Source: a virus. From it: a DNA stretch of 64,000 nt. The notes under the pieces are model-generated. The model saw only the letters and a program-made list of their open reading frames with translations, ran no database searches and was not told where the DNA came from. Both the position numbers and the translations under genes were made by a program. Location: positions 32,001 to 96,000 of IMG/VR virus record IMGVR_UViG_3300032288_004702; one strand, written 5' to 3'. Shown piece by piece: positions 31,299-52,731 of the stretch (its first letter is position 1; each line of letters begins with the position of its first letter).

Positions 31299-31523
31299 AT
31301 GAGCGATACAGACGACATTTATATAATCCCGGATTGTCAACCTACTGATTTTGCCTCGGGAGATATAGCACTTGCCGACAATGAAACAGTGCTATACAGA
31401 ATTTCTGAATGTTACAAATGTGATGAGTTCATTAGAGAATCATCACTCTGCAGGCAAAGTGGTTGTCAAATTTCAATAAAAGTGAAAGTCAGTAATTCCA
31501 CATGCCCAATAGGAATATGGTGA
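31299..31523 (+). CDS. Small Cys-rich protein (CxxC...CxxxGC...CPxxxW)
   Basis: RISECYKCDEF...LCRQSGC...CPIGIW. Confidence 0.72.
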   Translation: MSDTDDIYIIPDCQPTDFASGDIALADNETVLYRISECYKCDEFIRESSLCRQSGCQISIKVKVSNSTCPIGIW

Positions 31524-31524
31524 C

Positions 31525-31746
31525 ATGAGGGAGAGAAGGGCAAACCCTCTAGATTTTTTTAAAACGTCGACAAAGTATGTCGACGACGAGACTGCCGAGT
31601 TGCGATACTCGATATGCGATGGATGCGAATTTTTCTTGCAAATCACAAAACAGTGCCGCAAGTGTGGCTGTTTTATGCATCTAAAGACAAAAATTGCACA
31701 CGCTGAATGCCCGATTAACAAGTGGGGTCCGGTCCTGACAGATTAA
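31525..31746 (+). CDS. Small Cys-rich protein (paralog)
   Basis: RYSICDGCEFF...QCRKCGCFM...CPINKW. Confidence 0.8.
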   Translation: MRERRANPLDFFKTSTKYVDDETAELRYSICDGCEFFLQITKQCRKCGCFMHLKTKIAHAECPINKWGPVLTD

Positions 31747-32804
31747 CTGTTCAGCTCGTACCATCCACCTCCCCATAGTGTTTCAAGTCTCCTGAAGTAT
31801 CGCTCATACATCAAACCTACAGCGTCGAGGCCGTATCTGTTCTTTGCGTATTGACCTATTGCCCGCCTATCAAGCTTTTCAGCATTAAGTGCCGCGTCAA
31901 TAAATTCCCGGAGTGTGTGACATCTAAAACCAGTTACCCCATCTTGCACTGTTTCTGTGAACGCCCCCCAGTCCGTTGATATTACGGGCGAGCCGCAGGC
32001 CATGGCCTCAATTGCGACAGTCCCAAATGGCTCAACGTATATTGTTGGAGTGAAAGTGGCTATTGCTCCACCCATTAATTTTGCTCTCTCTTCAGTCCCT
32101 ACTACGCCAACATACTCACCGTATTCCGGGGGTATTCCCTGACCTGCAATAATTAACCGCTTCCCAAGGTGTTTGCAAACATCTACAGCAATTTGATAAC
32201 CCTTGCGCTCTATTAGTCTTCCGATGTAGAGGTAGTAGTCATCTGGTTCTATTTGTGTCGGAAAATCATCGACATCTATATAGCTAGGTATTACGGTATC
32301 GTAGAACTTGCCATCTAGTACATGCGGGTCAGTAACTTTGGAGCCATAACAGGAGTGCATCCATGCATACGACTCAAAAACTTTGTACTTAGCGAAAGAA
32401 CCGCCGTATCCAATTCCGAACTCTACGCTTAGCTCGTCTGGAAAAGCATCTGCAATTGGCTTAGAGGCATAACCGGCGATGAGGCAAATAAAGTCCTTGT
32501 GCTCAAGACGCTTACGCATCTGATAAATAACATTTCCATTAAAAGTAACCCAGTGGGGCAGATTCCAGTCAAATGATGCTGCTGAATAGTGATTTTGCCC
32601 AACTGCTTGCAGCCGCTGCTCCTCGGTAATGCACATAATATGCTCATCACATGACGCTTCATTGAACTCTCCACCGTAAAGAAACACGGTATGGCCCAAG
32701 TTCTTCATCATTATGCAGAACTTGCGGACCTTCTCCGTATAAGCGCAGGCTGTAAATTCTTCAGTAGTGTTGGTGTGTGGTAGTGAAACTACGTGGAAAC
32801 GCAT
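31743..32804 (-). CDS. GT-B (GT4-like) glycosyltransferase
   Basis: YIGRLIERKG, EPFGTVAIEAMACGSPVI, DGVTGF. Confidence 0.93.
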   Translation of the reverse strand: MRFHVVSLPHTNTTEEFTACAYTEKVRKFCIMMKNLGHTVFLYGGEFNEASCDEHIMCITEEQRLQAVGQNHYSAASFDWNLPHWVTFNGNVIYQMRKRLEHKDFICLIAGYASKPIADAFPDELSVEFGIGYGGSFAKYKVFESYAWMHSCYGSKVTDPHVLDGKFYDTVIPSYIDVDDFPTQIEPDDYYLYIGRLIERKGYQIAVDVCKHLGKRLIIAGQGIPPEYGEYVGVVGTEERAKLMGGAIATFTPTIYVEPFGTVAIEAMACGSPVISTDWGAFTETVQDGVTGFRCHTLREFIDAALNAEKLDRRAIGQYAKNRYGLDAVGLMYERYFRRLETLWGGGWYELNS

Positions 32805-32813
32805 TAAACCATC

Positions 32814-33782
32814 TTAATACTTGATAATGTAATTAACCGTAAGCATGGGCTGGATGTTTTCAACTGCGGAACTGGCCGTATACCCACCGTCCGTCGTGTT
32901 TGACGTGCTCGGTCCGCCTGTTGTTAGGTTGTTTGTATCAACCGTGACTGTATGTGCATGGCTATTGACACCATGCGAATGGTCGGAACTATGTCTATGG
33001 TCGTACATGCCATGGTTGTGGTATGGGTTTGAGTCGCCAGAGGTGCCGTTTGTGAACGAATGTTGATGGCTTCCTTCGTACTCCGATATTCCATAATTGG
33101 AAAGGTTTTGGCCCGATGCCGAAACCCTGGCTCTTGCCGTTCCCGACCCGGCATCAGTTACAAAATAAAGCCTATGCTCGTGATAGCCGGCTGAGTAATG
33201 GGTGTGGTCGACGCTGTGGTTGTGATTAATCGATACCGACTCTGTTCCGCTGGGGCTGGGAGAGCCTATTCCTGCAGATGCGGTGGTCGTACTGGTGGAT
33301 GTACCACCACTATTTCCCGTATTTGTTCCCACAGTATGGGCATGGCTGGCACTGTGGGTATGGCTATTAAGGCCATGGACGTGCGCCGGCATATTGTTGG
33401 CCACTAGCGTTACGGATTCTGTTCCATACCAAGAGCCCAATGCCCTATTGGTAAGAGTAGAGCCGCCCGATATTGCCCCGGATGACGCAGAGGTGCCACC
33501 GCCAGAACCCTGACCGGCCCCAACTAGCGTTCGTCCTTTTGTGTTTGGAACATGAAAGGTTGTACTTCCGTCGCCAGCTCCAAATGTGGTTGATATTGCT
33601 GCAAACAAGTTTGCATAGGTTGTTCTTGAATATGTAGAACCATCGCATAGCAGCCAACCGTCGGGGGCAGACGAGCCTGCATACGGCATCATCGCACCCG
33701 GAGGTATCAATTCAAATCCAGCAGGAACAGAGTCTGTCGATACGGTAATCCCGTCCTTTACGGCAAATTTAGTTCTCGGCAT
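32814..33782 (-). CDS. Tail-collar domain fibre with 11 HxH motifs
   Basis: PPGAMMPYAGSSAPDGWLLCDG...GDGSTTF, repeated HxH, ends NIQP...NYIIKY. Confidence 0.9.
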   Translation of the reverse strand: MPRTKFAVKDGITVSTDSVPAGFELIPPGAMMPYAGSSAPDGWLLCDGSTYSRTTYANLFAAISTTFGAGDGSTTFHVPNTKGRTLVGAGQGSGGGTSASSGAISGGSTLTNRALGSWYGTESVTLVANNMPAHVHGLNSHTHSASHAHTVGTNTGNSGGTSTSTTTASAGIGSPSPSGTESVSINHNHSVDHTHYSAGYHEHRLYFVTDAGSGTARARVSASGQNLSNYGISEYEGSHQHSFTNGTSGDSNPYHNHGMYDHRHSSDHSHGVNSHAHTVTVDTNNLTTGGPSTSNTTDGGYTASSAVENIQPMLTVNYIIKY

Positions 33783-34140
33783 TCCGGTCCTCCTGCTGTG
33801 CGAGCTTTTGTTCGCTAGTCATTGCTGACCATGTTGACTCAAATGCATCAATATCCCAGTTTGCCCAAGTTGCAGGGACGCCCTGCCCAGGTAATGGACC
33901 TAGGTCTACGACATATGGCAATGGACTCTCAACAGTACTTGTTATATCCCGAACCCCTTGTCTCCAGATTCTCCAGTCATTTTTTATTTCATCAGACAGT
34001 GGGGAATCCGGTGATTGAGTCCAATCGCTTTCTTTTAACAAAACATCCCTCATCTGACGCAAAGCAGCCAATAGCTCTTCCTGTGTTGTCGCTGGCTTAT
34101 CAAACGGCGCAAGTGGCCAGCCATATATCTGAATTCTCAT
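33769..34140 (-). CDS. Tail fibre assembly chaperone
   Basis: LRQMRDVLLKESDWTQSPDSPL...WRIWRQGVRDIT. Confidence 0.85.
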   Translation of the reverse strand: MRIQIYGWPLAPFDKPATTQEELLAALRQMRDVLLKESDWTQSPDSPLSDEIKNDWRIWRQGVRDITSTVESPLPYVVDLGPLPGQGVPATWANWDIDAFESTWSAMTSEQKLAQQEDRNAEN

Positions 34141-34304
34141 GATTTATGACTTCCTTGCTCTTTTTCTTTTCTGATACTGTCTATGGCGGCTTTTGTCGTA
34201 TCAACGTCACCACCAAGGTGGTGTTTGGCAAACTGCTCCAGCATTGCCAGTTCCACGATTTCAACATCGCTATACACGACTACTTCTTTTTGAATATTTT
34301 CCAT
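34137..34304 (-). CDS. Small hypothetical protein
   Basis: Coupled ORF; ATG 34304 preferred. Confidence 0.55.
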   Translation of the reverse strand: MENIQKEVVVYSDVEIVELAMLEQFAKHHLGGDVDTTKAAIDSIRKEKEQGSHKS

Positions 34305-35065
34305 CTTTTTTTCCCACCATTTATAGGGCACTCGCTCAACATTTTATCAACCTTTATGCGTTCGCGCCTGTATGGACCCGCCGTTCCATCATGTGGCGCT
34401 ATGTGCCCCATCCCAAAACCAGTAGTGGCGACGTATTTAAAGTAGGACTCATCGTTGAAAACGATTTCCTCAAAATCTGAGTCTCTCTTAAACGGAATCA
34501 ACTGTGCAATTGGTGTTCCGACTTTTATGGAGAATGGGGCATTCCCCGTTATGTTTAGAACGATGTTGGCCAGGTGGTAATAATCTGTATTTATTATTGC
34601 CGGAAGAACTGAGAAGTTTTCATTCGGCTCCCAGTGAATAGGCAGAAGAATGGTTGACCACCCAGGCGCAGTCTCGAATCTCCAGGGGTTCACGAGTTTC
34701 GGATACTGCCCTGTTTCTATTTGCCTCATATCGGTTACTGGACACGAGCCGGTTGACTCATAAGCAAAGCCCTGAACGTTGTTGATACCAGCCTGGGGGC
34801 TGAAGTCATCCCCGCCCGTCTCCCAAGCTCCATGAGAATCTGGTCTAAATCGGTAGTTTGTCCAAAGGGGAAGGGTTACACCTGCCCCTAGATAATCGAT
34901 TGTCCCTGCGCAGCGCCTGATGGAGCCCTGATGTTTCCCAATTCTTTTAAACCATGAAGGCTGATTGGTAACGCTGTTTACGAATGGCGGAAACTCCATC
35001 ATTCTGTTGTCAACTGGAGTAAATCTAATTTGACCGGGTTTTACAGGGGGGAGCTTATGGCTCAT
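34280..35065 (-). CDS. dUTPase-like-fold hypothetical protein (DUF6065-like)
   Basis: IRRCAG, PWRFETAPGWS, PAIINTDYY, IKVGTPIAQLIPFKR; ATGA overlap with the halogenase stop. Confidence 0.65.
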   Translation of the reverse strand: MSHKLPPVKPGQIRFTPVDNRMMEFPPFVNSVTNQPSWFKRIGKHQGSIRRCAGTIDYLGAGVTLPLWTNYRFRPDSHGAWETGGDDFSPQAGINNVQGFAYESTGSCPVTDMRQIETGQYPKLVNPWRFETAPGWSTILLPIHWEPNENFSVLPAIINTDYYHLANIVLNITGNAPFSIKVGTPIAQLIPFKRDSDFEEIVFNDESYFKYVATTGFGMGHIAPHDGTAGPYRRERIKVDKMLSECPINGGKKRWKIFKKK

Positions 35066-36612
35066 TTGTACAACCATTCTTCATCGGGAGACGAAAGCTC
35101 TCTTAAAGCGGTTGCGTGGTCAACTAATTCATGGTTGTGTCTGCCCTGTCGCATTTTATCAATTTCGTAAAATACCTGTTCACGTATGGCCATCATATTC
35201 ATAGCGCGAGTGCAGGCATCTTTGCTTATTATTCCCTGGCCTTGGGCCACGTGGGCCAGGTGTGGAGCTTGGAACATTTCTCCTGAATTTGATTCGAAGT
35301 CATAACGTGACGGAGGTTTTTCTGACCAAAGCTCTATCAATTCTTGCAACTCTTCATTTATTGGCATGTTCGACATTTCTTTCCAAAAGGGAGTATCTTG
35401 TCTGTCGGTATAATAATGAAGCCTAATCATTGTCAGTATGTTGCGCATCATTTTGTCAAAACCCTTATTGAAATGTTTTTGCGACGCCGTGTGTCCCGGT
35501 GCGTAGGATGCAATATATGGAATTGACTGCCTAACTTGTTGAATCGTCGAACCAATGCTTGTCGCCTCAAGTGGCTCGACAAAAGAAGAAGCTAAACCTA
35601 TTGCTATGCAGTTTTTCACCCATGAATTTCTCAAATATCCGGCATCAAATGAAATTATTCGCGGATTTTCTACTTTGTATCCGGTCATTTTTTCTGCTTC
35701 AGCGATTGCCTGTTCCGGTGCCAAAAACTCGGAACAGAATACATAACCGTTTCCTCGACGCTCTTGAGTAGGAATCTCCCACATCCACCCCGAAGAAGCA
35801 GCCCTTGCTCTGGTGTATGGCCGTATCTTCCCATTTGGGTCACTTTCAGTTGGGAAAGGTATCGCTGTGTTGCTAAGAAGATACTTATTAAACGAAACCC
35901 ATTCTGTGTTGCCTAGCTTTGTCATCAAAAGTCTATTAAATCCACTCGCATCAAACCAAAAATCTGCATTGACTTCATCGCCTTGTGCAGTCTTTATTGA
36001 CTTAATGTTCCCATTTTCCGGGTTGACCAATACTTCCGAAACATCTCCATCGACAAACTTGACAGAACGCTTGAATGCGAGTGAAATAAAATACTCGTTT
36101 AGCTTAAACGTGTCAAAATGAAACTGATTCGTACTTGAGTGCAGTCCATTACGGCTTATTTTATCTTTTATGATTCCAACGCTTGATGTGTTTGGGGTAA
36201 ATAATCTGTCCTGCTCCATTAATCCCATGTAGGTTCCATAGAGACCAAAAGCAAAGATGTCGTCTACGGCCCCAACGCTGTGAAAATAGTCTGGATTTTT
36301 ATTGCACCAGTTTTCATACCTAATCCCATATTTATGGGTGGCGGATGTGGCGACAATCATTTCCTCCAAAGGGATTTCGCATATATCCATGAACTGGCGC
36401 CAATGCTCAGTGGAGCCCTCACCAACGCCGATTATTCCAATCTTTGATGAAGAAACTACGGTTATTTCAGATAGCGGAAAGGCTTTTCTGAGCAGCAAGG
36501 ATGCGATAAGACCGGCAGTGCCGGAGCCAACAATTGCTACTGATTGCGGCTTTTGACCAATTCCATTTGTGCGAATGTTTGTTAGGTCTTGGTTAGTCAC
36601 CATGTTTGACAT
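35062..36612 (-). CDS. Flavin-dependent tryptophan halogenase family protein
   Basis: GSGTAG FAD motif, GVGEGS, catalytic-Lys region ATHKYGIRYENW, FHFD, WMWEIP (WxWxIP), GLASSFVEPLEATSI. Confidence 0.93.
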   Translation of the reverse strand: MSNMVTNQDLTNIRTNGIGQKPQSVAIVGSGTAGLIASLLLRKAFPLSEITVVSSSKIGIIGVGEGSTEHWRQFMDICEIPLEEMIVATSATHKYGIRYENWCNKNPDYFHSVGAVDDIFAFGLYGTYMGLMEQDRLFTPNTSSVGIIKDKISRNGLHSSTNQFHFDTFKLNEYFISLAFKRSVKFVDGDVSEVLVNPENGNIKSIKTAQGDEVNADFWFDASGFNRLLMTKLGNTEWVSFNKYLLSNTAIPFPTESDPNGKIRPYTRARAASSGWMWEIPTQERRGNGYVFCSEFLAPEQAIAEAEKMTGYKVENPRIISFDAGYLRNSWVKNCIAIGLASSFVEPLEATSIGSTIQQVRQSIPYIASYAPGHTASQKHFNKGFDKMMRNILTMIRLHYYTDRQDTPFWKEMSNMPINEELQELIELWSEKPPSRYDFESNSGEMFQAPHLAHVAQGQGIISKDACTRAMNMMAIREQVFYEIDKMRQGRHNHELVDHATALRELSSPDEEWLYK

Positions 36613-37300
36613 ATACGGTAAACGCTATCTGTGTTGGGATGTGGAAAGAAGTGAACAGCCCGGAGTTTAGTATCTGCTGATGTACTAGATATGCGCCAGT
36701 TTCATCCCCGTTTTCATAGAGATTCCCCAAATCTGAAGCATTTGAAACAACCAAAACACCATTGCTGTTCAGCGAAGAGATGACAGCATCTAGCAGATGC
36801 TCGTTAAAACCGAGAGACTGACAATAAACGAGAGCCATATCCTGTGTTCCAGCAAGAGAGGCAATATCAGAATAATTGACGGTTGTAAAGTTATCAAAAA
36901 TTGAAACATCTGAATACTTGCACACACTTTGTGTGATAATCGTATTTAAGACAGTAACTTCGTCAATATATGGGGCAACCCTTGTTAGGCTTTCTAAGGC
37001 ACCAACAACAAACATTTTCTGCGGTTGGCGCATTCTCACAAGGGCTTCGACTATGTCTACACATGCAGCAATTAGGTTTCTGAATTCTGCATTGTCGTCT
37101 GAGCCGAGAATGAACGAATGGAACTCGTCTACAAAAATAACGCGCTCTAATGGTATGCCTGATGAGTCATATACTTGACGCATCTTGACATAGATATTTT
37201 TCAGTTCGTTATCAGAAAGAACTGGGGCAGAGTCACCGTTAGCCCTAGTGTGCATGGACCTGGCAATGCGAGACATTTCCTCAATTGTGAAATTAGGCAT
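36593..37300 (-). CDS. Degenerate class I O-methyltransferase-like protein
   Basis: LVRMRQPQKMFVVG, DMALV, LNSNGVLVVSN, HIPTQIAFTVYVK align with a catechol-type OMT layout, but the SAM motif is eroded. Confidence 0.5.
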   Translation of the reverse strand: MPNFTIEEMSRIARSMHTRANGDSAPVLSDNELKNIYVKMRQVYDSSGIPLERVIFVDEFHSFILGSDDNAEFRNLIAACVDIVEALVRMRQPQKMFVVGALESLTRVAPYIDEVTVLNTIITQSVCKYSDVSIFDNFTTVNYSDIASLAGTQDMALVYCQSLGFNEHLLDAVISSLNSNGVLVVSNASDLGNLYENGDETGAYLVHQQILNSGLFTSFHIPTQIAFTVYVKHGD

Positions 37301-37529
37301 TTGTTGCCTCCTCGATTAATGGCGCAAGGAATTTTGCAAAATATAGATGACGCAATTCTCCGTATGCCCGGTTGTACTCTGCAGGGGTGAGATTTGACCT
37401 TAGCCCGCTTTTGACAGTTTTATAGTTTTCCTCGGTTACGGTCATATCCGAAACTCCGGCTAGTCCGCAGATGCGAATCATTCTTGTTTCCACATACTGC
37501 ATGTGGTCCTCTAGCGAATAGCTAATCAT
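37293..37529 (-). CDS. Hypothetical protein
   Basis: ATG 37529 with gagga RBS; overlaps both neighbours. Confidence 0.6.
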   Translation of the reverse strand: MISYSLEDHMQYVETRMIRICGLAGVSDMTVTEENYKTVKSGLRSNLTPAEYNRAYGELRHLYFAKFLAPLIEEATNA

Positions 37530-37779
37530 CGTCTTCCTCTTGTTTAAATGACGGCATTGGCGTCGACATGAAAATGCACCTAAACTTATCACCTTCTGAG
37601 TCGATGACAGCATGTTGGGTTAGGTCGTATTTTTTGGCTACCCACTCCATCTCGTCGTAATCTGCTTCAACCAGGTCTTGGTGGTCTTTTTCTTTTAGTG
37701 AATCGCCATCCCATGGCCTTCTATTTCTTATGTTTCCTATTGGTCTAAAATGCGATGAAAAATAACTGAATATACTCAT
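37522..37779 (-). CDS. Hypothetical protein
   Basis: Translationally coupled to the oxygenase gene. Confidence 0.6.
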   Translation of the reverse strand: MSIFSYFSSHFRPIGNIRNRRPWDGDSLKEKDHQDLVEADYDEMEWVAKKYDLTQHAVIDSEGDKFRCIFMSTPMPSFKQEEDDD

Positions 37780-38357
37780 CTAAACCACGTCACTAACGAA
37801 TATTTAGTCCCAGCGACCACGGGGTGCGCTATATGGAGATATGGAAAATTGCTAGGAAACATAACTACCGAACCTGCTTCGCATTCTACGGTTGTATCAA
37901 ATAGGGGGAACTCTAAACTTCCGCCCGATTCGGGGGAAACAAGGTTTGCAACCATACTGAAAACTCTGGCGTTATCCCTGAAATGGTCATAGTGGCTATG
38001 GTATTCAGACTCTGGCAAATATTTGAGCACTTGATACGGCTCGAACACTGCGCTCGCTATTAAATATTCTTTTCTATAGTCTTCCGCAACCTCAGCAACC
38101 TGGTCTCCTATTGTTCTTTGAAAAAACTTAGACAATTCGGTTTCTGGATATGGTTTCATAAATGAAACTAACGAGCAGGATAAAGAAGTGCGATATTGCG
38201 TTATGGCACCCTGGCCAACACCAGACGAACCCCATCCGAGCTCTGACCATTCATTTTCAATTTCTTCATTAAGCATATTTATAAAAGATTTCGCCATATC
38301 TGGCTCGAAAACTTCTTTATATACGGTTATGCAGGTTGCTGGTTTTTCAATTTTCAT
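37776..38357 (-). CDS. 2OG-Fe(II) oxygenase (prolyl-4-hydroxylase-like)
   Basis: RTS, YQVLKY, HYD, GGSLEF, FPSNFPYLH, VVAGTKYSLVTW. Confidence 0.92.
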   Translation of the reverse strand: MKIEKPATCITVYKEVFEPDMAKSFINMLNEEIENEWSELGWGSSGVGQGAITQYRTSLSCSLVSFMKPYPETELSKFFQRTIGDQVAEVAEDYRKEYLIASAVFEPYQVLKYLPESEYHSHYDHFRDNARVFSMVANLVSPESGGSLEFPLFDTTVECEAGSVVMFPSNFPYLHIAHPVVAGTKYSLVTWFR

Positions 38358-38776
38358 ACAACCTCAAAGGAAGATACTAAAAATTTTTCATCATTATCGA
38401 ATATGGCAAATTCATATGTGCCTGCTTCATGGAAGCGAGTTCTAAACTTTACGACGTGGCGCTCCAGGACTGTTGGTTTATGGCTAGTTTTAACCCCGGC
38501 TGGCGAAACAGTTTCCATTCTTGTTTCTCGGCCCATATTGAGAAATTCGTTTGTTACGTCTACAGAAAAAATACGGCCGGACTTAACTGTCTCGTCGTGG
38601 TTGGCGGCACAAAACTCAGGAACTGAAATAATAGAAATTGATTCCTTATTTATACCGTCTCCAATGGAGCCAGTCCTGATTGACAGCTGGGCATCTTTTG
38701 CGAGTTTTTCAGCTTCTTTTGGTACTACCAAATCATTTTCAACTAGAAAATGCGGGACATAGACAAAACGTTTCAT
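38354..38776 (-). CDS. Hypothetical protein
   Basis: Coupled 140-aa ORF. Confidence 0.7.
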   Translation of the reverse strand: MKRFVYVPHFLVENDLVVPKEAEKLAKDAQLSIRTGSIGDGINKESISIISVPEFCAANHDETVKSGRIFSVDVTNEFLNMGRETRMETVSPAGVKTSHKPTVLERHVVKFRTRFHEAGTYEFAIFDNDEKFLVSSFEVV

Positions 38777-39009
38777 TGAAGCTCATTTAGCTTACTTTCA
38801 ATTAGCTCCAAGGCCGAAACAAGACCCCTGACCCTATTGTATTCACCGGCAAATGAACCATCCGTTGATGTTGGAAGCTCGTCAACAGAAGCAAAGGTAT
38901 CCGGGTCTATGCCTAGGCGAATAAGGATGTTGTAAATCTCTGTCGTGATTCCGGCTTTCGAGTTCCGAAGGGCCATCTCTTTTTGTTGATTTGTCAAACC
39001 AAGGTCCAT
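38773..39009 (-). CDS. Hypothetical protein
   Basis: ggag RBS; coupled 78-aa ORF. Confidence 0.7.
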   Translation of the reverse strand: MDLGLTNQQKEMALRNSKAGITTEIYNILIRLGIDPDTFASVDELPTSTDGSFAGEYNRVRGLVSALELIESKLNELQ

Positions 39010-39017
39010 TTTTTCTC

Positions 39018-40769
39018 CTAAACATTCAGTAGGACATAGGAACTTCCAGAAGATGCGGAAAAATTATCCGAATCGGCCGTAAGACCAGCCCTTGTATCAT
39101 ATGTAATCGTAGCATCTATGGAGTCGGTAAGGACGAGGATTGAGCCCCCTCCACCTGCTCCACCACGCTTTCCAGTTGAGCCTATTCCGCCTGTTCCCCC
39201 TGCGCCACCCGCTCCGCCGGCGCCCCCTGCTCCGCCTGCCCCTCCAGCCCCTCCGGCGCCCCCCACTCCGCCTGGTCCGCCTGGTCCACCTGCATAGTGG
39301 CTATTGGGGTTCGGGTGTGTATGTGGTGCTACGTGGTGATGGTGCCAGGTGGGTGTAGTTGTTGGATGGTGTGCATGTGTGTGGCTATGGTGCGGAAGGC
39401 CAAAATGAGCATGGACATGTCCATCGTGTCCGCCAAACGAACCGTGATAAACGCCTGAGTGGTGATACCCGTTTCCGTCTCCATGGCTATGGCCACCGTG
39501 GCCGTTCGGCTTTTGGTGGTAGTGGGGGAACGGGTGACTGTGGCTTATCTGGAAATAAGCATGCCACCAATGACCATCCCAGTGATGAGCGCCACCATGT
39601 GGACCATCATTATGCGGGTGGTGATAGTGACCAGCATGGTGATGGTGTGGTCCTAGATAGTGATGACCCTTGCCGCCATCAACGTGGGCCCTAACGGAGT
39701 GCGCATGCCGGTCTGAGTGATTTGTGTAATGGTGATGGTGGGAATAATTTCGCGCATCAGGGTTTGGTACGGAGGTTGCCGGGTTTGAGTGAGTAATTCC
39801 AGGCGCTGCAGAGCCGGGAGTTCCTGCAGAGCCGGGAGTTCCTGTGGCCCCAGATGCTCCAGGAGAACCGCTAGCCCCACTTGCGCCAACTGCTCCGGTT
39901 GTTCCAGGGCTTCCAGCAGAACCCGTAGAACCGGACATTCCTAGTGAAATAAATTTTCCCGAACCTGTGATGTACTTTGCCACAATGCAGACAACGCCAC
40001 CACCCATCCCGCCAGTTCCTCCAGCGCCTCCAGCTCCACCAACGCCAGAAGCACCAGGACTACCACTAGCACCACGATTTCCACTAGCACCCGAAGCGCC
40101 CACGGAACCAGGTGAACCCGAAGCACCTGGATAGCCTTTTCCACCAGAAGCGCCAACGGTTGAAGCATTTGGTGGATATGCGCCATTAGCCCCTGGAGTG
40201 CCAGTAGCACCAGCGGAGCCAGCAGAACCAGGAGAGCCAGTAGCACCAGGAGAGCCGGTGGCACCAGCAGAACCAGCAGGCGAGGAACCGGATGCGCCCA
40301 CCGAACCAGTTGAGCCGCGCGAGCCACCAGACATTGGTGAAACACCAAGTGTTGGGTCAATCATTAATCCACCAGACATGGCACTAATGTCTTTATATAG
40401 GTAGGAAGGCAATGCTGTAACGCCGGGGTTGGTCCCACCGCCACCCTGACCGCCGGTTCTGTATGTTATTGCGCCAGAAGTATGACCCTTTAATGTCCCA
40501 TCAGAAACAGCACTTGCTGGCTCCCCTATGGTTCCCGATGTAACGGAACCCAAACCAATGTACCCATCGTTAACTAAAGTGTTTTTTACAAAGACTCTGT
40601 AACCGTTTGTATTGAGAAAAACGCCAGAGTTAACGGTCAAATTATTGTAATACATGTCTGAAGTGATTGATGTATCAGAAGTGATTGTTACGTCGCCGTC
40701 TGTTCCACTCCCGTAGATTCCGTCATTTCCAGAACGACCGACACTTGACTCAACCCTATTGATAGCCAT
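39018..40769 (-). CDS. Glycine-rich fibre/adhesin with inserted His-rich domain
   Basis: YGSGTDGDV...NGYRVFVKNTL core, GxxGxx arms, ~165-aa segment with ~51 His. Confidence 0.85.
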   Translation of the reverse strand: MAINRVESSVGRSGNDGIYGSGTDGDVTITSDTSITSDMYYNNLTVNSGVFLNTNGYRVFVKNTLVNDGYIGLGSVTSGTIGEPASAVSDGTLKGHTSGAITYRTGGQGGGGTNPGVTALPSYLYKDISAMSGGLMIDPTLGVSPMSGGSRGSTGSVGASGSSPAGSAGATGSPGATGSPGSAGSAGATGTPGANGAYPPNASTVGASGGKGYPGASGSPGSVGASGASGNRGASGSPGASGVGGAGGAGGTGGMGGGVVCIVAKYITGSGKFISLGMSGSTGSAGSPGTTGAVGASGASGSPGASGATGTPGSAGTPGSAAPGITHSNPATSVPNPDARNYSHHHHYTNHSDRHAHSVRAHVDGGKGHHYLGPHHHHAGHYHHPHNDGPHGGAHHWDGHWWHAYFQISHSHPFPHYHQKPNGHGGHSHGDGNGYHHSGVYHGSFGGHDGHVHAHFGLPHHSHTHAHHPTTTPTWHHHHVAPHTHPNPNSHYAGGPGGPGGVGGAGGAGGAGGAGGAGGAGGAGGTGGIGSTGKRGGAGGGGSILVLTDSIDATITYDTRAGLTADSDNFSASSGSSYVLLNV

Positions 40770-40771
40770 AA

Positions 40772-41535
40772 CTACACCCGCGTAATGTAGATATATGTTC
40801 CAGGATTTTGACCAGTCACATCTGTTGATATTCCACTAGGAAGAGAGGAACCGGAAGAAACAACAATAATCACTCCGCCACCAGCAGGAGCTGTTCCTGG
40901 TGCTTTTATATATGCCGTTCCAGAAGAAGGTCCAGAAATGTATCTTGCTGCGATTATCACAACACCACCGCCAGCCTCGCCTGCACCGCCGGCACCTCCA
41001 CGTAGGAAACTTGGTCCACCGGATGCCGTAACGGCATAACCAGTAATAGCCTGATGTGCAACTCTGAAATAGTTTGGGCCACCCATCGCATCAGTTGGAG
41101 CCGTTGCCGAATATCCAGTAGCTGAGCCACCGAGAGAATGCGTTACAGCAGTTGCTGCTTCACCACCCTGCGCAATAGAACCAGCGGTTGAATAACCAGA
41201 CGTATATCCGATTGTCGCATTCGTTCCTGCAAACTTAAGAGTCCCCTTAACGAACACCCTGTATCCGTTCGGCTGAAGACGACAGCTTGTGTTGATTGTT
41301 AGGTCGTTGAAGAACATATCGCGCGTCATTGTGTAGACGCTTGCAGAAGGGCCCATCCCAAGTATGGTTGTTGAGCCATCAAGAACAACATCACCATCCG
41401 AGCCGTTGCCGTACACAATGTCAGCACCTTCGTTGTAGTAGGCAACCCACACAGAACCATCCCACTGCCAACTCTTTGAACCGACAGTATAAATCTGGTT
41501 TGTGTATGGAGAAGACGGAAAAGTAATCGCAGGCA

Positions 41536-41536
<1 letters not shown>
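40772..41536 (-). CDS. Glycine-rich fibre protein (short paralog of 39018-40769)
   Basis: N-terminal FPSSP...WQWDG; YGNGSDGDV...NGYRVFVKGTL; GGGVVIIAARYISG. Confidence 0.82.
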
Positions 41537-45532
<3,996 letters not shown>

Positions 45533-45578
45533 GACCTCAATCGCTTCCTTATGAAACCCCCCTCAAGGGGCTATAGGG

Positions 45579-45767
45579 CTACTTTGTTTTGCCGAACGCT
45601 GCGTCGTTCTTGTTAAAGTAACGCATTGCAACGGGGAGAAGTGCAGCCCATAGCGCATTAAGTGCAGCTTTTGGGTCGCCTGTTGCAGCATATGCTGCTA
45701 CTGCTGCACCAATAACGCTTCTCGCATATGATGCGACCATTGCTTTTTGCTGGACTGATAGCTTCAT
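45579..45767 (-). CDS. Small membrane protein, holin-like
   Basis: ASYARS...ALLPVAMRYFNKNDAAFG, a pattern typical of actinophage holin-like proteins. Confidence 0.65.
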   Translation of the reverse strand: MKLSVQQKAMVASYARSVIGAAVAAYAATGDPKAALNALWAALLPVAMRYFNKNDAAFGKTK

Positions 45768-45776
45768 AATTATTCC

Positions 45777-47096
45777 TTATCCAGTTACAACGATTGTGTA
45801 ATCATTGGCCGAAATTGTTCCGTTCATCACAACAGTAACAGTGTTTACGTTTGCGCGAGTTGTATCTGCAAAAACCGTTGCGCCTGTGGCAACTTCATAC
45901 ACTTGAACCATTACATCAGTTGTATTAAAATTATGGGTTACAGTTGTTGTTGAAACACCTACTGAAGATGCAGCACATCCCTGCTTCGCAACTCTTGCCA
46001 GCGCCGGAGTGCTGGTCGTACGGCCAGTTGCCTCTGATGCGGCAGAAGCAAGGTTTGTTCTTGCACCAGACTCTGAAGATGAGCCAGTACCGCCGTCAAC
46101 AACGGCGATGTCAGTGCCATTCCATGTACCGGTAGTAATAGTGCCGAGGGTCGTAATGCTTGATTGACCAACATATGTTGACGCGATATCAATCGAGTCG
46201 GCATTGACGGTTATTCTGTCGGATGTTCCGACGGCATCAATCGTATTGCCAGCTTTAGTAAGACCGGCTCCAGCAGTGATTTGTCCAGCACCAGAAAACT
46301 GCGCCCAGTTGATTGCATCGGTTCCAACAGTAATTGGGCCATTGCTTGTTACTACCCACCCGCTATCTGCGTTTGTGGTTCCCTCTTCAACAAAAGTAAA
46401 CGCCCCACCAGATACTTCGCCGGCACCATCGAAATCTGTAGCACGAACCGCCGCACCGGTCTCCTGAACAACATAAATGCCGTTTTCTGATGCTGTGGTC
46501 TGATTCTTGACAAGGACTCTGTCTCCAGCAACTAGTGTTACTGTTGTGTCAATTGTGTCGCCGGCTTCAAGTTGGTTTGCAAGGTTTACTGGACCAGTTG
46601 TTGCCGCTCTAACTGATTGCTTTACGTCAAGGCCAGAGCGTGCAGCGTCAACATACCCCTTTGTGGCGGCATGAGCTGGGTCTGTTGGTGTAGCAACTTT
46701 TATATTTCCGCTTGCATCGCGGATAACTAGCTTACTTGCAGTTGCCTCGGATGTTGCATCACCAAGTTTTGTAAAATCTGATGACGTCATCAAACCAGCG
46801 CTTGCTGATGTAGCAAGATTTGGGGTGATAGTTATCTGTCCGCCAGACTCGGTTATTGTCAGGGCAGTTGAGTATGAGCCCCCAGACACAACACCCGCAT
46901 CAGCGCCAATGCCAGCAACTATTTTTCGCCATGCAGCTGCCGTCGCGTCATATACTTTAATAACGCCATCAACGCTATTGAAGTACATGCGACCATCGAA
47001 CAGGTTGGTATTCGGGTCAGACGCAAGAACCTCGAATGTCGCATTCAGAATTTGATTCTGATTTAGGTCAAGATTTGTTACGAATTTTGTTGCCAT
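45777..47096 (-). CDS. Fibre / virion appendage protein
   Basis: AATKGYVD, GLDVKQSVRAATT, GDRVLVKNQT...NGIYVV, C-terminal VTHNFNT. Confidence 0.82.
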   Translation of the reverse strand: MATKFVTNLDLNQNQILNATFEVLASDPNTNLFDGRMYFNSVDGVIKVYDATAAAWRKIVAGIGADAGVVSGGSYSTALTITESGGQITITPNLATSASAGLMTSSDFTKLGDATSEATASKLVIRDASGNIKVATPTDPAHAATKGYVDAARSGLDVKQSVRAATTGPVNLANQLEAGDTIDTTVTLVAGDRVLVKNQTTASENGIYVVQETGAAVRATDFDGAGEVSGGAFTFVEEGTTNADSGWVVTSNGPITVGTDAINWAQFSGAGQITAGAGLTKAGNTIDAVGTSDRITVNADSIDIASTYVGQSSITTLGTITTGTWNGTDIAVVDGGTGSSSESGARTNLASAASEATGRTTSTPALARVAKQGCAASSVGVSTTTVTHNFNTTDVMVQVYEVATGATVFADTTRANVNTVTVVMNGTISANDYTIVVTG

Positions 47097-47108
47097 TTGT
47101 CCTTGCCT

Positions 47109-47420
47109 TTAGGTCAGATAAGCGAATCCCGAAAATGCCGACGTGAACTCCACCTTTATTTGGGAATCACTAATATATGTTACCTCACCAATAACTACGG
47201 TATCTGCAGTATCAACAACGGTTATTGACGGACGACCCCCCAGCGAGTGGCTAATTACCCACTCTTCTGAGGCAACTGGCTGACTGTGAACATGTCTTCT
47301 TGTGTTGCCGCCATTTGCCGCTAAACGAACTACAACTTGATTTGGTGCATCCTGGTTTACGACAACTTTATTCGCCGTATCCTCGGTAACAATTACGTTA
47401 TTTGGGACGCTATTGCTCAT
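47109..47420 (-). CDS. Small virion adaptor protein
   Basis: WVISHSLGGRPSITVVD...FSGFAYLT. Confidence 0.7.
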   Translation of the reverse strand: MSNSVPNNVIVTEDTANKVVVNQDAPNQVVVRLAANGGNTRRHVHSQPVASEEWVISHSLGGRPSITVVDTADTVVIGEVTYISDSQIKVEFTSAFSGFAYLT

Positions 47421-47800
47421 CTCGTAACCTCTGGACTGAGATTAAAAGTTCCCTGCAAAACTCTTGACACAACATTCTGTGCGCTGATTATCTCTACGTC
47501 ATAAACTCCGCTTGTCGATACGGAGGCAGTAACATCAGCCGAGGCGTGTATCAGTATTTTATTTGTATCGCCTGCTACTGGGTTTATAGTTAGGCCGCCA
47601 TTGCCGGTCGTTAGTTCAAGAAGAAAGTTAGATGAGTCAATAGTTCTTCTAACTTGCATTCTTGCGGAGTACCCGGATAGGTCAAACGGTATAAATGTTT
47701 GACCTGATGGGTCGGTTGCTAGGTCTGGCTGCTCTATTTCAATCGTGCGAGAAAAAGTTGACCCCTGTTGGCACGTCATGTTGTAGTTACCGGCCAACAT
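47417..47800 (-). CDS. Fibre attachment protein (BppU N-terminal / LtfC-like)
   Basis: QGSTF, DLSGYSARMQVR, GVYDVEI, RVLQGTFNLSPEVTR; ATG 47800 with ggagg RBS. Confidence 0.75.
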   Translation of the reverse strand: MLAGNYNMTCQQGSTFSRTIEIEQPDLATDPSGQTFIPFDLSGYSARMQVRRTIDSSNFLLELTTGNGGLTINPVAGDTNKILIHASADVTASVSTSGVYDVEIISAQNVVSRVLQGTFNLSPEVTR

Positions 47801-47838
47801 TGCAGAAACTGCCTCCAAAATAAACGACTACACCAATG

Positions 47839-47874
47839 ATTGTAGATTATTCAGCTCCCTAGTCAGCTCAAGTA
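47839..47874 (-). promoter_or_regulatory. Putative late promoter TACTTGA-N23-TACAAT heading the fibre/tailoring operon
   Basis: Recurring motif and spacing. Confidence 0.55.
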
Positions 47875-47955
47875 TTTACTGCATCTGCCTTTAATTGTCT
47901 CAATATCTATTTATGTTCAAGGTCCGCAATTTTAGAATAGTCTTGAGAAGATTTT

Positions 47956-49047
47956 ATGAAGAAGCCGCAAAAACCTACAGTTGCATTTCTCACGCATGAC
48001 TGGGCGTGGGGAACCGACCCACTCCAGCCAAATGGATGTGCATGGTATAGATGCAAGCTCCCGTCAGATGAGCTCAATAAGCGTGGATGGTTTACCGCAA
48101 CTGGTTTCCCTGGATTTAACAACCAGCGAGGATTTGGGATGTTGGTGGACGGGGGGAGGGCTGTTCACGGCTGGGACATAATAGTTTTAAAACTGTTGAT
48201 GCAGAAAGAGATACTCGAGTCAATCCCAAAAGCTCAAGCTATGGGCCAAAAAATAGTTGTAGATATTGACGACTGGTTTGACGGATTGTCTAAGTCGAAC
48301 AGGGCGCATGAAGCAACAGACCCAAAGAAGAACCCTGCGTCAAATAGGGAAATCTATGCCCAAATAATTATGGCAGCAGACGCTGTCATCACGTCAACAC
48401 CGTTTCTTTTCGAGTACTACGGCAAAAAGCGTGACAATGTATTTATGGTCAGAAACGGCATAGACCTTGATAGATGGAAGAAAAAATCAATAACAAATAC
48501 GCGAAAGACAAGAGTTGGGTGGGTTGGGGCAACCCACTGGCGGTCAAACGACCTAGAACAATTGTCTGGCTTTATGGGGAAATATATAAGGTCTCGCAAT
48601 ATTCTATTTCATCATTCGGGGCATAACGACAGTGCGCCATTGGCCAGCGAACTAATAGGTGTTGATAGGTCTCTGTCAAAAACGAGCCCAATGGCCCCAA
48701 TACTTCAATACCCGGCGTTATTAACTCCGATTGATATTGGAATTATCCCACTTAACAACATTCAGTTCAACCATGCTAAATCTTTTATAAAAGGCCTTGA
48801 GTATGCCGCTGCTGGCGTCCCTTTCATTTCTTCATACTCACCCGAGTATCAGTATTTAGCAGACAACGGAATAGGACGCATAGCTAATACAGAAAAAGAA
48901 TGGATATATCATTTAGACGAATTGCTAGACATCAATAAAAGACGGGATGATGCATTGGAAAACCTTTCGCACATACACAAGTTTTCAATGGATTCTCGAG
49001 GGGACGACTGGGACGCAACAATGAGATTTATAAAGGACAACATATGA
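47956..49047 (+). CDS. Glycosyltransferase (GT-B)
   Basis: GCAWYR, VVDIDD, VGWVG, DIGIIPL-x4-FNHAKSFIKGLEYAAAGVP. Confidence 0.88.
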   Translation: MKKPQKPTVAFLTHDWAWGTDPLQPNGCAWYRCKLPSDELNKRGWFTATGFPGFNNQRGFGMLVDGGRAVHGWDIIVLKLLMQKEILESIPKAQAMGQKIVVDIDDWFDGLSKSNRAHEATDPKKNPASNREIYAQIIMAADAVITSTPFLFEYYGKKRDNVFMVRNGIDLDRWKKKSITNTRKTRVGWVGATHWRSNDLEQLSGFMGKYIRSRNILFHHSGHNDSAPLASELIGVDRSLSKTSPMAPILQYPALLTPIDIGIIPLNNIQFNHAKSFIKGLEYAAAGVPFISSYSPEYQYLADNGIGRIANTEKEWIYHLDELLDINKRRDDALENLSHIHKFSMDSRGDDWDATMRFIKDNI

Positions 49048-49865
49048 ATACTGAATATAAAGAACACCTTGAAGCACAGTACGCAGAACTAACAGTTCCG
49101 GCTCCAGAACCAGGGCCAGCGGACTGGAATGACGATGGTTTTGTAATCAAGAAGGGGTTGATACCGGAAAATCTGATGGAAGAGTACGAGGCATGTTGGA
49201 TTGACAACAATGCAGAGTACGTAGACGGGAAGCTATCAATGACACGGCCCGGCGGATGGCCAGACTGCACACCGTACCGCAGACATCAAGAAGTGATGGA
49301 CATCCTCACCTATAAGGAAATATCCGACACAATGGAGGAGCTAATAGGCGAACCAGCTGCTGTTCACCTAAACCTAACTGGGTGGGTAACAACAACTAGA
49401 GATTGGCACCAAGATACGTATCTCAATCCTCCGCATGTTGGCGATTACTACGTGGCAATCTGGATAGCACTAGAAACGATAAATCCAGATTCTGGGCCAT
49501 TTCAACTGGTTCCAGGCTCGCATAGATGGCCAACTGTTACTCAGGAAAAAATCCTTAACGCTCTTCCAGAAGATAAACGCGATTATCGTTGGCCTCGATT
49601 CAGTGAAGAAATACTGACTCCAATATTTACGCACGAAATAGAAAAAAGAAATGCTGAAGTTTTGACTTATTTACCGGAGCGTGGAGACGTTCTCTTTTGG
49701 CATGGTCGACTGCTTCATAGGGGTTCAAAGCCAAATAATCCATCGCTTGCGCGTAAATCGCTGATTGCTCACTATTCAGGAATAAACCACAGACAGGATA
49801 TGCCAAAAGCATTAAAACACGTAGATGGATGGTACTTTCCAATAGATGGGGGTAATAACGTATGA
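49044..49865 (+). CDS. Phytanoyl-CoA dioxygenase (PhyH) family 2OG-Fe(II) oxygenase
   Basis: DGFVI, WHQD, WIALE, GPFQLVPGSH, GDVLFWHGRLLHRG, RKSLIAHY. Confidence 0.9.
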   Translation: MNTEYKEHLEAQYAELTVPAPEPGPADWNDDGFVIKKGLIPENLMEEYEACWIDNNAEYVDGKLSMTRPGGWPDCTPYRRHQEVMDILTYKEISDTMEELIGEPAAVHLNLTGWVTTTRDWHQDTYLNPPHVGDYYVAIWIALETINPDSGPFQLVPGSHRWPTVTQEKILNALPEDKRDYRWPRFSEEILTPIFTHEIEKRNAEVLTYLPERGDVLFWHGRLLHRGSKPNNPSLARKSLIAHYSGINHRQDMPKALKHVDGWYFPIDGGNNV

Positions 49866-50440
49866 GCAACTATCTAAACGCTGGATGTGGAACGCATTAC
49901 GCAAAAGGTTGGATAAATACAGATACATGGGAGACAGACGACACAACCCCAGATGTTCGTGTTGAGCCAGGAAAACCGTACCCATTCGAGGAAAATTTTT
50001 TTGATGCCGTATTTCTGGGGCATGTTCTGGAGCACATTCCATGGAAAGAAGTTCCGGCATTCCTCGCAGATATGAAGAGGGTCGCAAAACCGGGAGCAAA
50101 GTTTTTAATATGTGGTCCCGACGTCTTCAAGACAATCCATAGATGGGCGAATGGGCAGGAACCATGGGAAATGGTTATGTCGGTATTGGAGCATCTTGAC
50201 GTAGAGAATCACAGCGTGCCTGGTCTTGAGTGGTGGGATGGGGCACATCATCATTGGAATTGTCATAACGACCGTGTTGTAAAACTGCTTGATTCATGTG
50301 GTTTCTCGAACATTACTGACGTATTTGATGTAATTCCAAAGAATCCTCTTGGGAAAAACTGGAATGACGGGAAAATAAACTGGCCAGTCGTCGGTCATTG
50401 GCATTGGCACTTTGCGGTTACTTGTATAAACAATAAATAA
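49862..50440 (+). CDS. Class I SAM-dependent methyltransferase (type 11-like)
   Basis: LNAGCG, PFEENFFD, HVLEHI, RVAKPG. Confidence 0.88.
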   Translation: MSNYLNAGCGTHYAKGWINTDTWETDDTTPDVRVEPGKPYPFEENFFDAVFLGHVLEHIPWKEVPAFLADMKRVAKPGAKFLICGPDVFKTIHRWANGQEPWEMVMSVLEHLDVENHSVPGLEWWDGAHHHWNCHNDRVVKLLDSCGFSNITDVFDVIPKNPLGKNWNDGKINWPVVGHWHWHFAVTCINNK

Positions 50441-52584: not shown

Positions 52585-52731
52585 GCCAATATTGTGACTG
52601 TCTTTTTGTAAGACTCAATTTTTAGCAAACTTTCTTATTGTACAATTGGTTTTATGGCGCTGCGACGGAAAGACAATAAGCCCCAGAGCCCCAAACCCGT
52701 ACAAACACTCCCAAGAAGGAAGGCTAAAAAA

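Follow-up and report, generated by a model that had tools for sequence, protein, structure and literature searches.

Gene content of the locus

The 64,000-nucleotide stretch of DNA analyzed here (the window) comprises bases 32001 to 96000 of IMG/VR record IMGVR_UViG_3300032288_004702, a record of 156,276 bp, with direct terminal repeats, from an uncultured virus. The portal, large terminase, tail sheath and baseplate wedge that it encodes are those of a myovirus-type tailed phage, and megablast of the whole region against cultured phages returned no match. Our subject is an accessory cassette within its tail-fibre operon, in which a flavin-dependent halogenase, a dUTPase-fold protein and an oxygenase resembling prolyl-4-hydroxylases (P4Hs) are encoded together with two Gly-rich proteins. 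The operon consists of 20 consecutive minus-strand open reading frames (ORFs), g01 to g20, running from position 47818 down to 31743 with neighbors that overlap or lie at most 46 nt apart. The first-pass annotation of this DNA had described an unbroken, closely packed minus-strand run with structural genes on either side of the enzymes, and both descriptions stand, with collagen-like and tail-collar fibre proteins flanking the halogenase, the oxygenase, the dUTPase-fold protein and a GT4 glycosyltransferase. This packing fits a single transcription unit, short of proof. The cassette and the small genes that frequently accompany it are as follows, with protein lengths in amino acids (aa).

40772..41536, minus strand: g07, 254-aa Gly-rich beta-helix protein, cassette member and paralogue of g08 (AlphaFold2 [AF2] model, mean confidence [pLDDT] 86)
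39018..40769, minus strand: g08, 583 aa, candidate substrate within the cassette, combining a beta-helix core with collagen-like G-X-Y tracts and a His-rich domain
39252..39806, minus strand: His-rich domain of g08, residues 322-506 (51 His, 4 Trp, 9 Tyr, 18 Pro)
38773..39009, minus strand: g09, 78-aa helical-looking small protein, frequent cassette member
38354..38776, minus strand: g10, 140 aa, frequent cassette member
37776..38357, minus strand: g11, P4H-like 2-oxoglutarate (2OG)-Fe(II) oxygenase (PF13640, 2OG-FeII_Oxy_3, 3e-12)
35062..36612, minus strand: g15, flavin-dependent halogenase, clade A of phage halogenases (Trp_halogenase PF04820, 2e-101)
34280..35077, minus strand: g16, 265-aa dUTPase-fold protein, homologue of Syn9 gp43

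Co-inheritance of the cassette genes

Searches of IMG/VR were seeded with the halogenase, with an alignment of g07 and with an alignment of g03, a fibre-type gene of the same operon, and the ORFs of recovered loci were scored with profiles built from orthologues. Unique loci were counted, and a locus was considered well flanked when it extended at least 7 kb on both sides. By this measure g07, g08, g11 and g16 are present in 31/31 well-flanked halogenase loci, and g08, the halogenase and g16 are present in 33/33 well-flanked g07 loci, 31 of which also contain g11. The small genes g09 (29/31 and 31/33 well-flanked loci) and g10 (25/31 and 28/33) accompany them frequently. Spacing is conserved as well: in 76 of 77 unique loci no more than 300 nt separate g16 from the halogenase, and the same holds for g08 and g07 in 67 of 68. 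The grouping is kept through rearrangements (L062-65, L043-46, L067-68), and g12-g14 and g17-g20 vary across loci.

Absence follows the same pattern. Among 30 g03-seeded loci of at least 15 kb, 25 contain none of the four genes and 3 contain all four; one of the remaining two is cut off just past g07 and g08, and the other has g16 alone. Of 14 records from the same lineage (tail sheath 66-87% identical), 4 have both the halogenase and g07 and 10 have neither; two of these 10 are complete genomes. In the two complete siblings g08 is absent along with the halogenase and g07 throughout the genome, and the fetched regions contain none of g07, g08, g11, the halogenase and g16. One of the two, G008, keeps g01, g02 and g03 together with a collagen protein of 2102 aa, three Collar proteins, the GT4 and an oxygenase of PF13640, and is without g07, g08, the halogenase and g16. 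Because G008 retains only this frame, the operon can be divided into two layers: a general layer of collagen or Collar fibre genes, P4H-like oxygenase and GT4, and a separable sub-module of g07, g08, halogenase and g16. Together, g07, g08, g11, the halogenase and g16 are an all-or-none accessory cassette. That the enzymes are something other than scattered metabolic genes, as initially argued, is borne out by the way in which the halogenase, the dUTPase-fold protein and the P4H-like oxygenase co-vary with g07 and g08 in contigs of uncultured phages.

The halogenase

In g15 the flavin adenine dinucleotide-binding motif GxGxxG occurs as GSGTAG (residues 29-34), with Gly residues invariant in 61 orthologues. 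The WxWxIP motif occurs within GWMWEIP (275-281), and this motif, K94 in THKYG, and E346 and E349 in FVEPLE are invariant or nearly so in the same orthologues, in keeping with the original description of an intact enzyme. The conserved Lys of flavin halogenases forms the chloramine. Alignments to Trp halogenase structures, considered for the C-terminal module that binds free Trp, end near residue 430-447 of 516. The 156-kb genome contains no PF01613 match that could represent a partner flavin reductase, and the host would therefore need to supply reduced flavin.

The closest solved relatives of g15 include BrvH (6frl) and Xcc4156 (6y1w); BrvH is reported not to accept free tryptophan, and its native substrate is not known (PMC7754283). 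VirX1 from cyanophage Syn10 (PDB 6qgm) is a viral member of the same enzyme family (E 8.8e-45) with a large, accessible active site, and its native substrate is likewise not known (PMC8407142). It differs from g15 in that Syn9-type halogenases are only about 26% or less identical to g15, these genus-mates falling below the best 40 matches listed, the weakest of which are about 25-28% identical. VirX1 itself probably belongs to the other clade of phage halogenases, judging from the halogenases of its genus-mate Syn9.

A different comparison is offered by the flavin halogenases of RiPP (ribosomally made, post-translationally modified peptide) pathways (SrpI, MibH, ChlH), which act post-translationally on ribosomal products (PMC10858898, PMC12615548). 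Here too a halogenase is encoded beside a ribosomally made candidate substrate. Those enzymes modify peptidyl-Trp in short precursors, several with the help of a leader (SrpI), whereas the candidate here is a 583-aa structural-type protein without conserved Trp. In family scans, none of the operon's 20 genes matched a leader/core precursor, a recognition element, a protease or an exporter. With these hallmarks missing and Trp not defining the substrate, the initial label of a RiPP-like cluster is not supported; the locus may function like a substrate-plus-tailoring cluster, yet it is no member of the RiPP clusters.

The dUTPase-fold protein

The g15 and g16 genes overlap by 16 nt. The g16 model (pLDDT 86) has a dUTPase fold (Z 10.6), all of the top 22 structural matches belong to the dUTPase/dCTP-deaminase superfamily, and Foldseek agrees, so that the dUTPase-like protein of the first reading is confirmed at the level of fold. 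The PF00692 score of 17.6 falls below the cut-off of 22. Motifs III and IV align in the profile ("vvhTDyYh" versus "GViDsDYrG"), with the catalytic first Asp replaced by His in the consensus and by Asn in the window. We considered an ordinary dUTPase role for g16, which is unlikely because this catalytic Asp of motif III is missing. No canonical dUTPase was found in the 156-kb genome. Two cysteines, C56 and C112, are invariant.

Homology of g16 to Syn9 gp43 is well supported by hhalign (97.6%), and a database search for relatives returned hypothetical proteins only. In S-RIM4 (L083) and Halorubrum virus Serpecor1 (L238), genes of the g16 family stand beside ribonucleotide reductase genes, with no annotated halogenase in the fetched 10-12 kb. 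Because of this adjacency the family may have a nucleotide-related role in some viruses. Searches of bacterial and archaeal genomes for g16 relatives recovered two metagenome-assembled genome (MAG) contigs, both with cassette genes and both probably viral. One is binned as Actinomycetota (L311, RHAS01000028.1; g16 72% identical) and ends before g07; the other is binned as Gammaproteobacteria (L312, PBNR01000003.1; 38%) and holds all five cassette genes. The host hints from these two bins conflict.

The P4H-like oxygenase

The assignment of g11 as a 2OG-Fe(II) oxygenase, proposed at the start, agrees with its match to 2OG-FeII_Oxy_3. The closest solved structures are the collagen-type P4Hs of PBCV-1 (vCPH, 5c5t) and Bacillus anthracis (3itq/5hv0), with weak overall similarity (E ~1e-3). 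The HxD...H iron triad and the 2OG-binding basic residue of these enzymes align with H122-Y-D124, H175 and K185 of g11, and the g11 gene sits beside genes for collagen-like proteins. The substrate motif X-Pro-Gly is unconserved in g08 orthologues and nearly missing from the collagen-like fibres g05 and g06, whose repeats place Pro at the X position (G-P-x-G 38 times in g05 and 16 times in g06, versus 2 and 0 for G-x-P-G). In cyanophage S-SCSM2R, proteomics of purified virions detected a 2OG "prolyl 3,4-dihydroxylase" (PMC12801897), which by analogy may be counted as outside support for the tailoring of virion proteins.

The Gly-rich candidate substrates

The paralogy of g07 and g08 is detected at 1e-14, and g07 shares an N-terminal module with the collagen fibre g06 (BLASTP 2e-10). 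The AF2 model of g07 is a single-chain beta-solenoid with generic matches to bactofilin, adhesins and tailspike at middling scores (Z up to 6.2); nothing was found in Pfam even at E 5, and tblastn of g07 and g08 against cultured phages gave no match. From the module shared with g06 and the adhesin- and tailspike-like model, g07 looks virion-attached. For g08, weak tail-fibre PHROG matches are probably due to its collagen tracts.

The His-rich domain occurs in every g08 orthologue of at least 380 aa, with variable sequence. It had been described as His/Trp-rich, of which the first half stands: g08 has 52 His (8.9%), of which 51 fall in residues 322-506, and only 4 Trp (0.7%), each of them within that domain. 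It carries 18 HxH triplets. The frequent companions g09 and g10 contain no Trp. Trp was considered as a conserved target and rejected, being unconserved in the g07 and g08 alignments; X-Pro-Gly, of which g08 has 12 copies as G-x-P-G, was rejected as a conserved P4H site of g08 on its spread among orthologues.

HxH triplets in T4 fibres bind Fe or Zn. Fibre tips of the T4 gp37/gp12 type are thus one point of comparison for the dense triplets of g08 and of the tail-collar protein g19, which has 11. The His-rich domain of g08 is far denser than the T4 tips (51 His in 185 residues) and variable in sequence, and, where the T4 tips form a trimeric needle, it is predicted from sequence and model to be an insert in a single-chain beta-helix paralogue.

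Related arrangements in cultured phages

A second phage family has a comparable arrangement. In Syn9 the order is gp38, gp39 (Gly-rich, PF21722), gp40, two halogenases, gp43, gp44 and a run of 2OG oxygenases, and a similar order with a tail fibre upstream occurs in seven Kyanoviridae (Syn9, Syn10, which is the source of VirX1, P-TIM40, S-SZBM1, S-WAM1, P-RSM6 and, judged by coordinates, S-CREM1). A g16 homologue lies within the arrangement in Syn9, Syn10 and P-TIM40, and every PF21722 gene of the Syn9, P-TIM40 and S-SZBM1 genomes is directly beside a halogenase. All 10 cultured phages with a Syn9-gp38-like protein have a halogenase, which is adjacent in 7; in Sf-FP1, Sf-CH3 and S-RIM44 the distance is about 70 kb. 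In S-SRM01 the halogenase has a tail-fibre gene on one side and a Gly-rich "adhesin tip" gene on the other.

Phage halogenases split into two deep clades (100/100) in a maximum-likelihood tree, one of the Syn9 type and the other containing this lineage together with S-H38, P-SSM2, S-SRM01, S-PM2 and HTVC008M. Homology of g07 to Syn9 gp38-like proteins was considered and rejected (hhalign probability 0.7%). From the tree and this comparison, the link to Gly-rich proteins is therefore present in both halogenase clades and with two families that have no detectable homology. The co-occurrence of phage halogenases with such fibres, put forward in the first-pass annotation as something to look for, is thus seen again in another phage family, unrelated to this one, whose Gly-rich proteins also belong to an unrelated family.

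The locus is a variant of the Syn9-type halogenase-dioxygenase neighborhood that Iyer, Abhiman, de Souza and Aravind described in 2010 and read as a set of halogenase, dUTPase-fold protein and dioxygenases for the synthesis of organo-halogen secondary metabolites (PMC2938197). In both, the halogenase is followed by a dUTPase-fold protein with conserved Cys (here g15 and g16), and in Syn9 and Syn10 the set lies just downstream of tail-fibre and Gly-rich genes. The differences are that the present locus has one halogenase and one P4H-like oxygenase in place of two halogenases and ten dioxygenases, that g15 is in the other deep clade, that g07 and g08 have no detectable homology to PF21722, that the present phage is no T4-like cyanophage, and that the published reading is metabolite synthesis rather than protein tailoring. 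The only PF13640 member among the operon genes is g11, and neither a JmjC/MINA-type dioxygenase (no JmjC match) nor a tandem dioxygenase array was found in the operon. For bacterial operons, the same authors suggested that co-encoded dioxygenases act on collagen-like and tail-collar proteins (PMC2938197), and the function of phage prnA is called unknown in cyanophage reviews (PMC2984593).

Two further observations concern members of the clade that includes this lineage. In the pelagiphage HTVC008M (L086, 1-3949) the sole PF21722 gene stands beside four 2OG oxygenases and a gene annotated as "ferrochelatase"; this block is 8 kb from the halogenase, which lies between two terminase subunit genes. 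The S-PM2 halogenase region (L306, 7995-9470) is unannotated in RefSeq and contains two ORFs, of 75 and 410 aa, that both match the halogenase profile, and the gene may be frameshifted or split.

Other genes of the operon and its surroundings

The remaining features of the operon are given below.

47819..47955, no strand: divergent intergenic region upstream of the operon, presumed promoter (ATAAATA at 47908-47914)
47417..47818, minus strand: g01, 133 aa (phrog_1084)
47109..47420, minus strand: g02, 103 aa
45777..47096, minus strand: g03, 439-aa fibre or virion-type protein (PHROG tail-fibre, virion and head-decoration matches)
45579..45767, minus strand: g04, 62-aa small protein kept beside g03 in relatives
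42818..45532, minus strand: g05, 904-aa collagen-like fibre with GPT/GAT repeats (Collagen 1.7e-45; tail-fibre PHROGs)
41536..42813, minus strand: g06, 425-aa collagen-like fibre (Collagen 2.2e-10)
37522..37779, minus strand: g12, 85-aa small ORF, variable, in close relatives only
37293..37613, minus strand: g13, small variable ORF that accompanies g14
36593..37300, minus strand: g14, 235 aa, variable insert, found in 17/80 loci
34137..34331, minus strand: g17, 64-aa small ORF, weakly conserved
33769..34140, minus strand: g18, tail-fibre assembly chaperone (Phage_tail_APC 2.9e-12)
32814..33782, minus strand: g19, tail-collar fibre protein with 11 HxH triplets (Collar 6.6e-23)
31743..32804, minus strand: g20, GT4 glycosyltransferase (family match)

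Most of the structural assignments made at first reading agree with these family matches: collagen repeats are found in g05 and g06, and also in g08, and the fibre chaperone, the HxH tail-collar fibre and the GT4 correspond to g18, g19 and g20. The fibre attachment proteins placed at the head of the run fare less evenly, as among g01-g03 only g03 matches fibre, virion and head-decoration PHROGs, and the attachment role of all three is putative. The g03-seeded loci show it to be a mobile fibre module that occurs also in phages without the cassette. The supposed degenerate O-methyltransferase, g14, has no Pfam or PHROG match, and its language-model methyltransferase lead (0.87) is under the 0.9 lead threshold.

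The late promoter suggested upstream of the operon is likewise unsupported. A sigma-70 scan gave 13 sites, fewer than the 23.7 in shuffles, the terminator scan did no better than shuffles, and copies of the T4-late-like heptamer ATAAATA exceed expectation in the window (19 versus 9) but lie mostly within genes. Because these scans are uninformative and the heptamer is mainly intragenic, the case for co-transcription is gene packing alone.

The g20 GT4 is 83-88% identical in most of the contigs that carry it, with two more distant copies in L051 (56%) and L081 (68%), whereas the halogenase and fibre genes of the g20-carrying contigs (loci L004-L073) have diverged to 45-65%; in G008 the GT4 is 67% identical. 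This contrast suggests unusually strong constraint or recent exchange.

On the opposite strand, a tandem pair of small paralogues (31299-31746, plus strand; phrog_13558; 74 and 73 aa, one of them with DUF6171) runs convergently toward the operon's end and recurs beside the fibre region in about 20 related contigs. A divergent three-gene unit adjoins the other end (47956-50440, plus strand), encoding a glycosyltransferase (phrog_7162), a PhyH dioxygenase (49044-49865; 3e-17) and a Methyltransf_11 protein; the phrog_7162 glycosyltransferase is also near the cassette in some relatives (L010, L056, L060, L076). Beyond it, 50476-53325 (plus strand) encodes a 702-aa PA14-domain protein followed by a VanY-type D-Ala-D-Ala carboxypeptidase, a likely endolysin. 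The large terminase (2705-4018, plus strand) has its best cultured matches in the Methanothermobacter viruses psiM2 and psiM100 and in Gordonia phages, at about 42-44% identity.

A proposed function and its alternatives

We put the probability at roughly 40% that the cassette consists of appendage proteins together with their own maturation enzymes, which makes this the most likely reading. Gene content, motifs, folds, packing and co-inheritance are observed, and from them we infer each chemical step and the identity of the substrates. The run would be a late virion-appendage operon carrying an accessory sub-module of g07, the His-rich g08, the helpers g09 and g10, and three enzymes that would mature g07 and g08 in the cytoplasm, ahead of assembly. 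In this scheme the targets of g11 would be Pro, or perhaps the side chains of other residues, hydroxylated within the collagen-like and His/Pro-rich regions of g08 and perhaps also in the collagen fibres g05 and g06. With reduced flavin supplied by the host, g15 would halogenate Tyr, His, or Trp where present, in the exposed His-rich domain, and the catalytically altered g16 would be an obligate halogenase partner, for example a substrate-presenting or scaffolding subunit. The GT4 and the neighboring trio of glycosyltransferase, PhyH and methyltransferase genes may add further decoration. The fibre-tailoring idea of the first-pass annotation thus has partial support, all of it from linkage, through the all-or-none cassette and the parallel in Kyanoviridae; the substrate is not defined by Trp, and RiPP hallmarks are missing.

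Several points weigh against this proposal. All of the evidence is linkage, not chemistry. Loci from one phage family share ancestry and do not count as independent events, and tail-fibre regions are recombination hot spots that gather accessory genes. Trp is unconserved in g07 and missing from the His-rich domain of many g08 orthologues, and in the papers found every flavin halogenase named as acting on peptides (SrpI, ChlH, engineered RebH) targets Trp; X-Pro-Gly triplets range from 0 to 17 across g08 orthologues. The halogenase is away from fibres in S-B64, S-PM2, P-SSM2 and HTVC008M, where the surrounding genes are of the replication, nucleotide or packaging type and a 2OG oxygenase usually adjoins it. 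Finally, g16 has the fold of a nucleotide enzyme, and its homologues in S-RIM4 and Serpecor1 stand beside ribonucleotide reductase genes on their own.

The main rival is a small-molecule pathway, followed by a split of the enzymes between two functions, by chance linkage and by nucleotide halogenation. According to the first, the halogenase, the dUTPase-fold protein and the oxygenase build or modify a halogenated, hydroxylated metabolite derived from an amino acid and merely hitch-hike with a mobile fibre module, or the His-rich protein binds the product or a metal. We consider this unlikely, yet a serious competitor. It is the published reading of the same enzyme set (PMC2938197), and it agrees with the halogenation of free small aromatics by the characterized relatives VirX1 and BrvH, with halogenase-oxygenase pairs that lack nearby fibre genes in several phages, and with the absence of conserved Trp in g07 and g08. 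Such a pathway would leave unexplained why linkage to g07 and g08 is all-or-none and why another phage family has convergently linked its halogenase to an unrelated Gly-rich family. The genes are also translationally packed within a structural operon, in which none of the 20 genes matched a peptide synthetase, an exporter or a gene for precursor supply in Pfam and PHROG scans.

Part of the tailoring proposal could hold without the halogenase, if only the P4H-like oxygenase and the glycosyltransferases acted on fibres, by collagen-type hydroxylation and glycosylation, and the halogenase and g16 did something unrelated to the virion. G008 would be readily understood in this way, since its PF13640 oxygenase, GT4 and giant collagen fibre are retained without the halogenase, g16, g07 and g08, as would two loci of the g03 fibre type (L169, L185), which carry several 2OG oxygenases but lack a halogenase. 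Among solved structures g11 is nearest to collagen P4Hs, and Iyer et al. had already proposed collagen-like and tail-collar substrates for dioxygenases in bacteria (PMC2938197). Against this, the strict association of g07 and g08 with the halogenase and g16, which holds in both directions, would have no explanation, and Pro in g05 and g06 occupies the X position rather than the classical X-Pro-Gly site. We regard such a division of labor as clearly improbable.

Poorer still are the prospects of chance linkage, in which unrelated accessory genes have piled up in a hypervariable tail-fibre region and are carried by descent. Fibre regions are mosaic, the loci of one lineage are not independent, and the block itself contains the variable inserts g12-g14. 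Chance would nonetheless have to account for a cassette that is gained and lost as a unit while flanking genes vary, for a grouping that persists after rearrangement, and for a similar order in which the Gly-rich proteins are not homologous and the halogenase clade is deeply separate. Least probable is that g16 binds a (deoxy)uridine or cytidine nucleotide whose base is modified by the halogenase to give modified DNA or a nucleotide signal: the dUTPase fold with part of motifs III and IV kept and the catalytic Asp gone, the lack of a canonical dUTPase in the genome and the ribonucleotide reductase genes beside g16 homologues in two other viruses speak for it, but the genes lie in a structural operon, not among replication genes, they are linked all-or-none to fibre-type proteins, and we know of no flavin halogenase that acts on nucleotides.

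Implications

Neither the enzyme set nor the general notion that dioxygenases modify collagen-like proteins is new, because both are already in Iyer et al. (PMC2938197). Neither this compact cassette nor its beta-helical, His-rich partners are described in the literature found, nor is the all-or-none linkage, which suggests a protein as the substrate of the halogenase. Genes for phage "tryptophan halogenases" have appeared in catalogues since 2005, and the characterization of VirX1 dates from 2019, with natural substrate and benefit to the phage not known (PMC2984593, PMC8407142).

A wider proposal, which we offer tentatively and consider doubtful as it stands, is that, in two or more families of tailed phages, receptor-binding appendages are chemically hardened or retuned through enzymatic halogenation and hydroxylation of Gly-rich fibre-tip proteins that bear His, Tyr or Trp. 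The native substrates of VirX1-type enzymes would then be virion proteins (gp38-like proteins in Syn9 and Syn10, g07 and g08 here), and the dUTPase-fold protein would be a new halogenase partner subunit. The linkage and the parallel beside the gene for VirX1 name specific, expressible candidate substrates, some of them from cultured phages, so that the proposal can be tested by mass spectrometry. If it is false, the published small-molecule reading gains weight. If it is true, these would be, to our knowledge, the first halogenated virion proteins, and their modification would add a new layer to host-range determination and provide protein-acting halogenases for biocatalysis.

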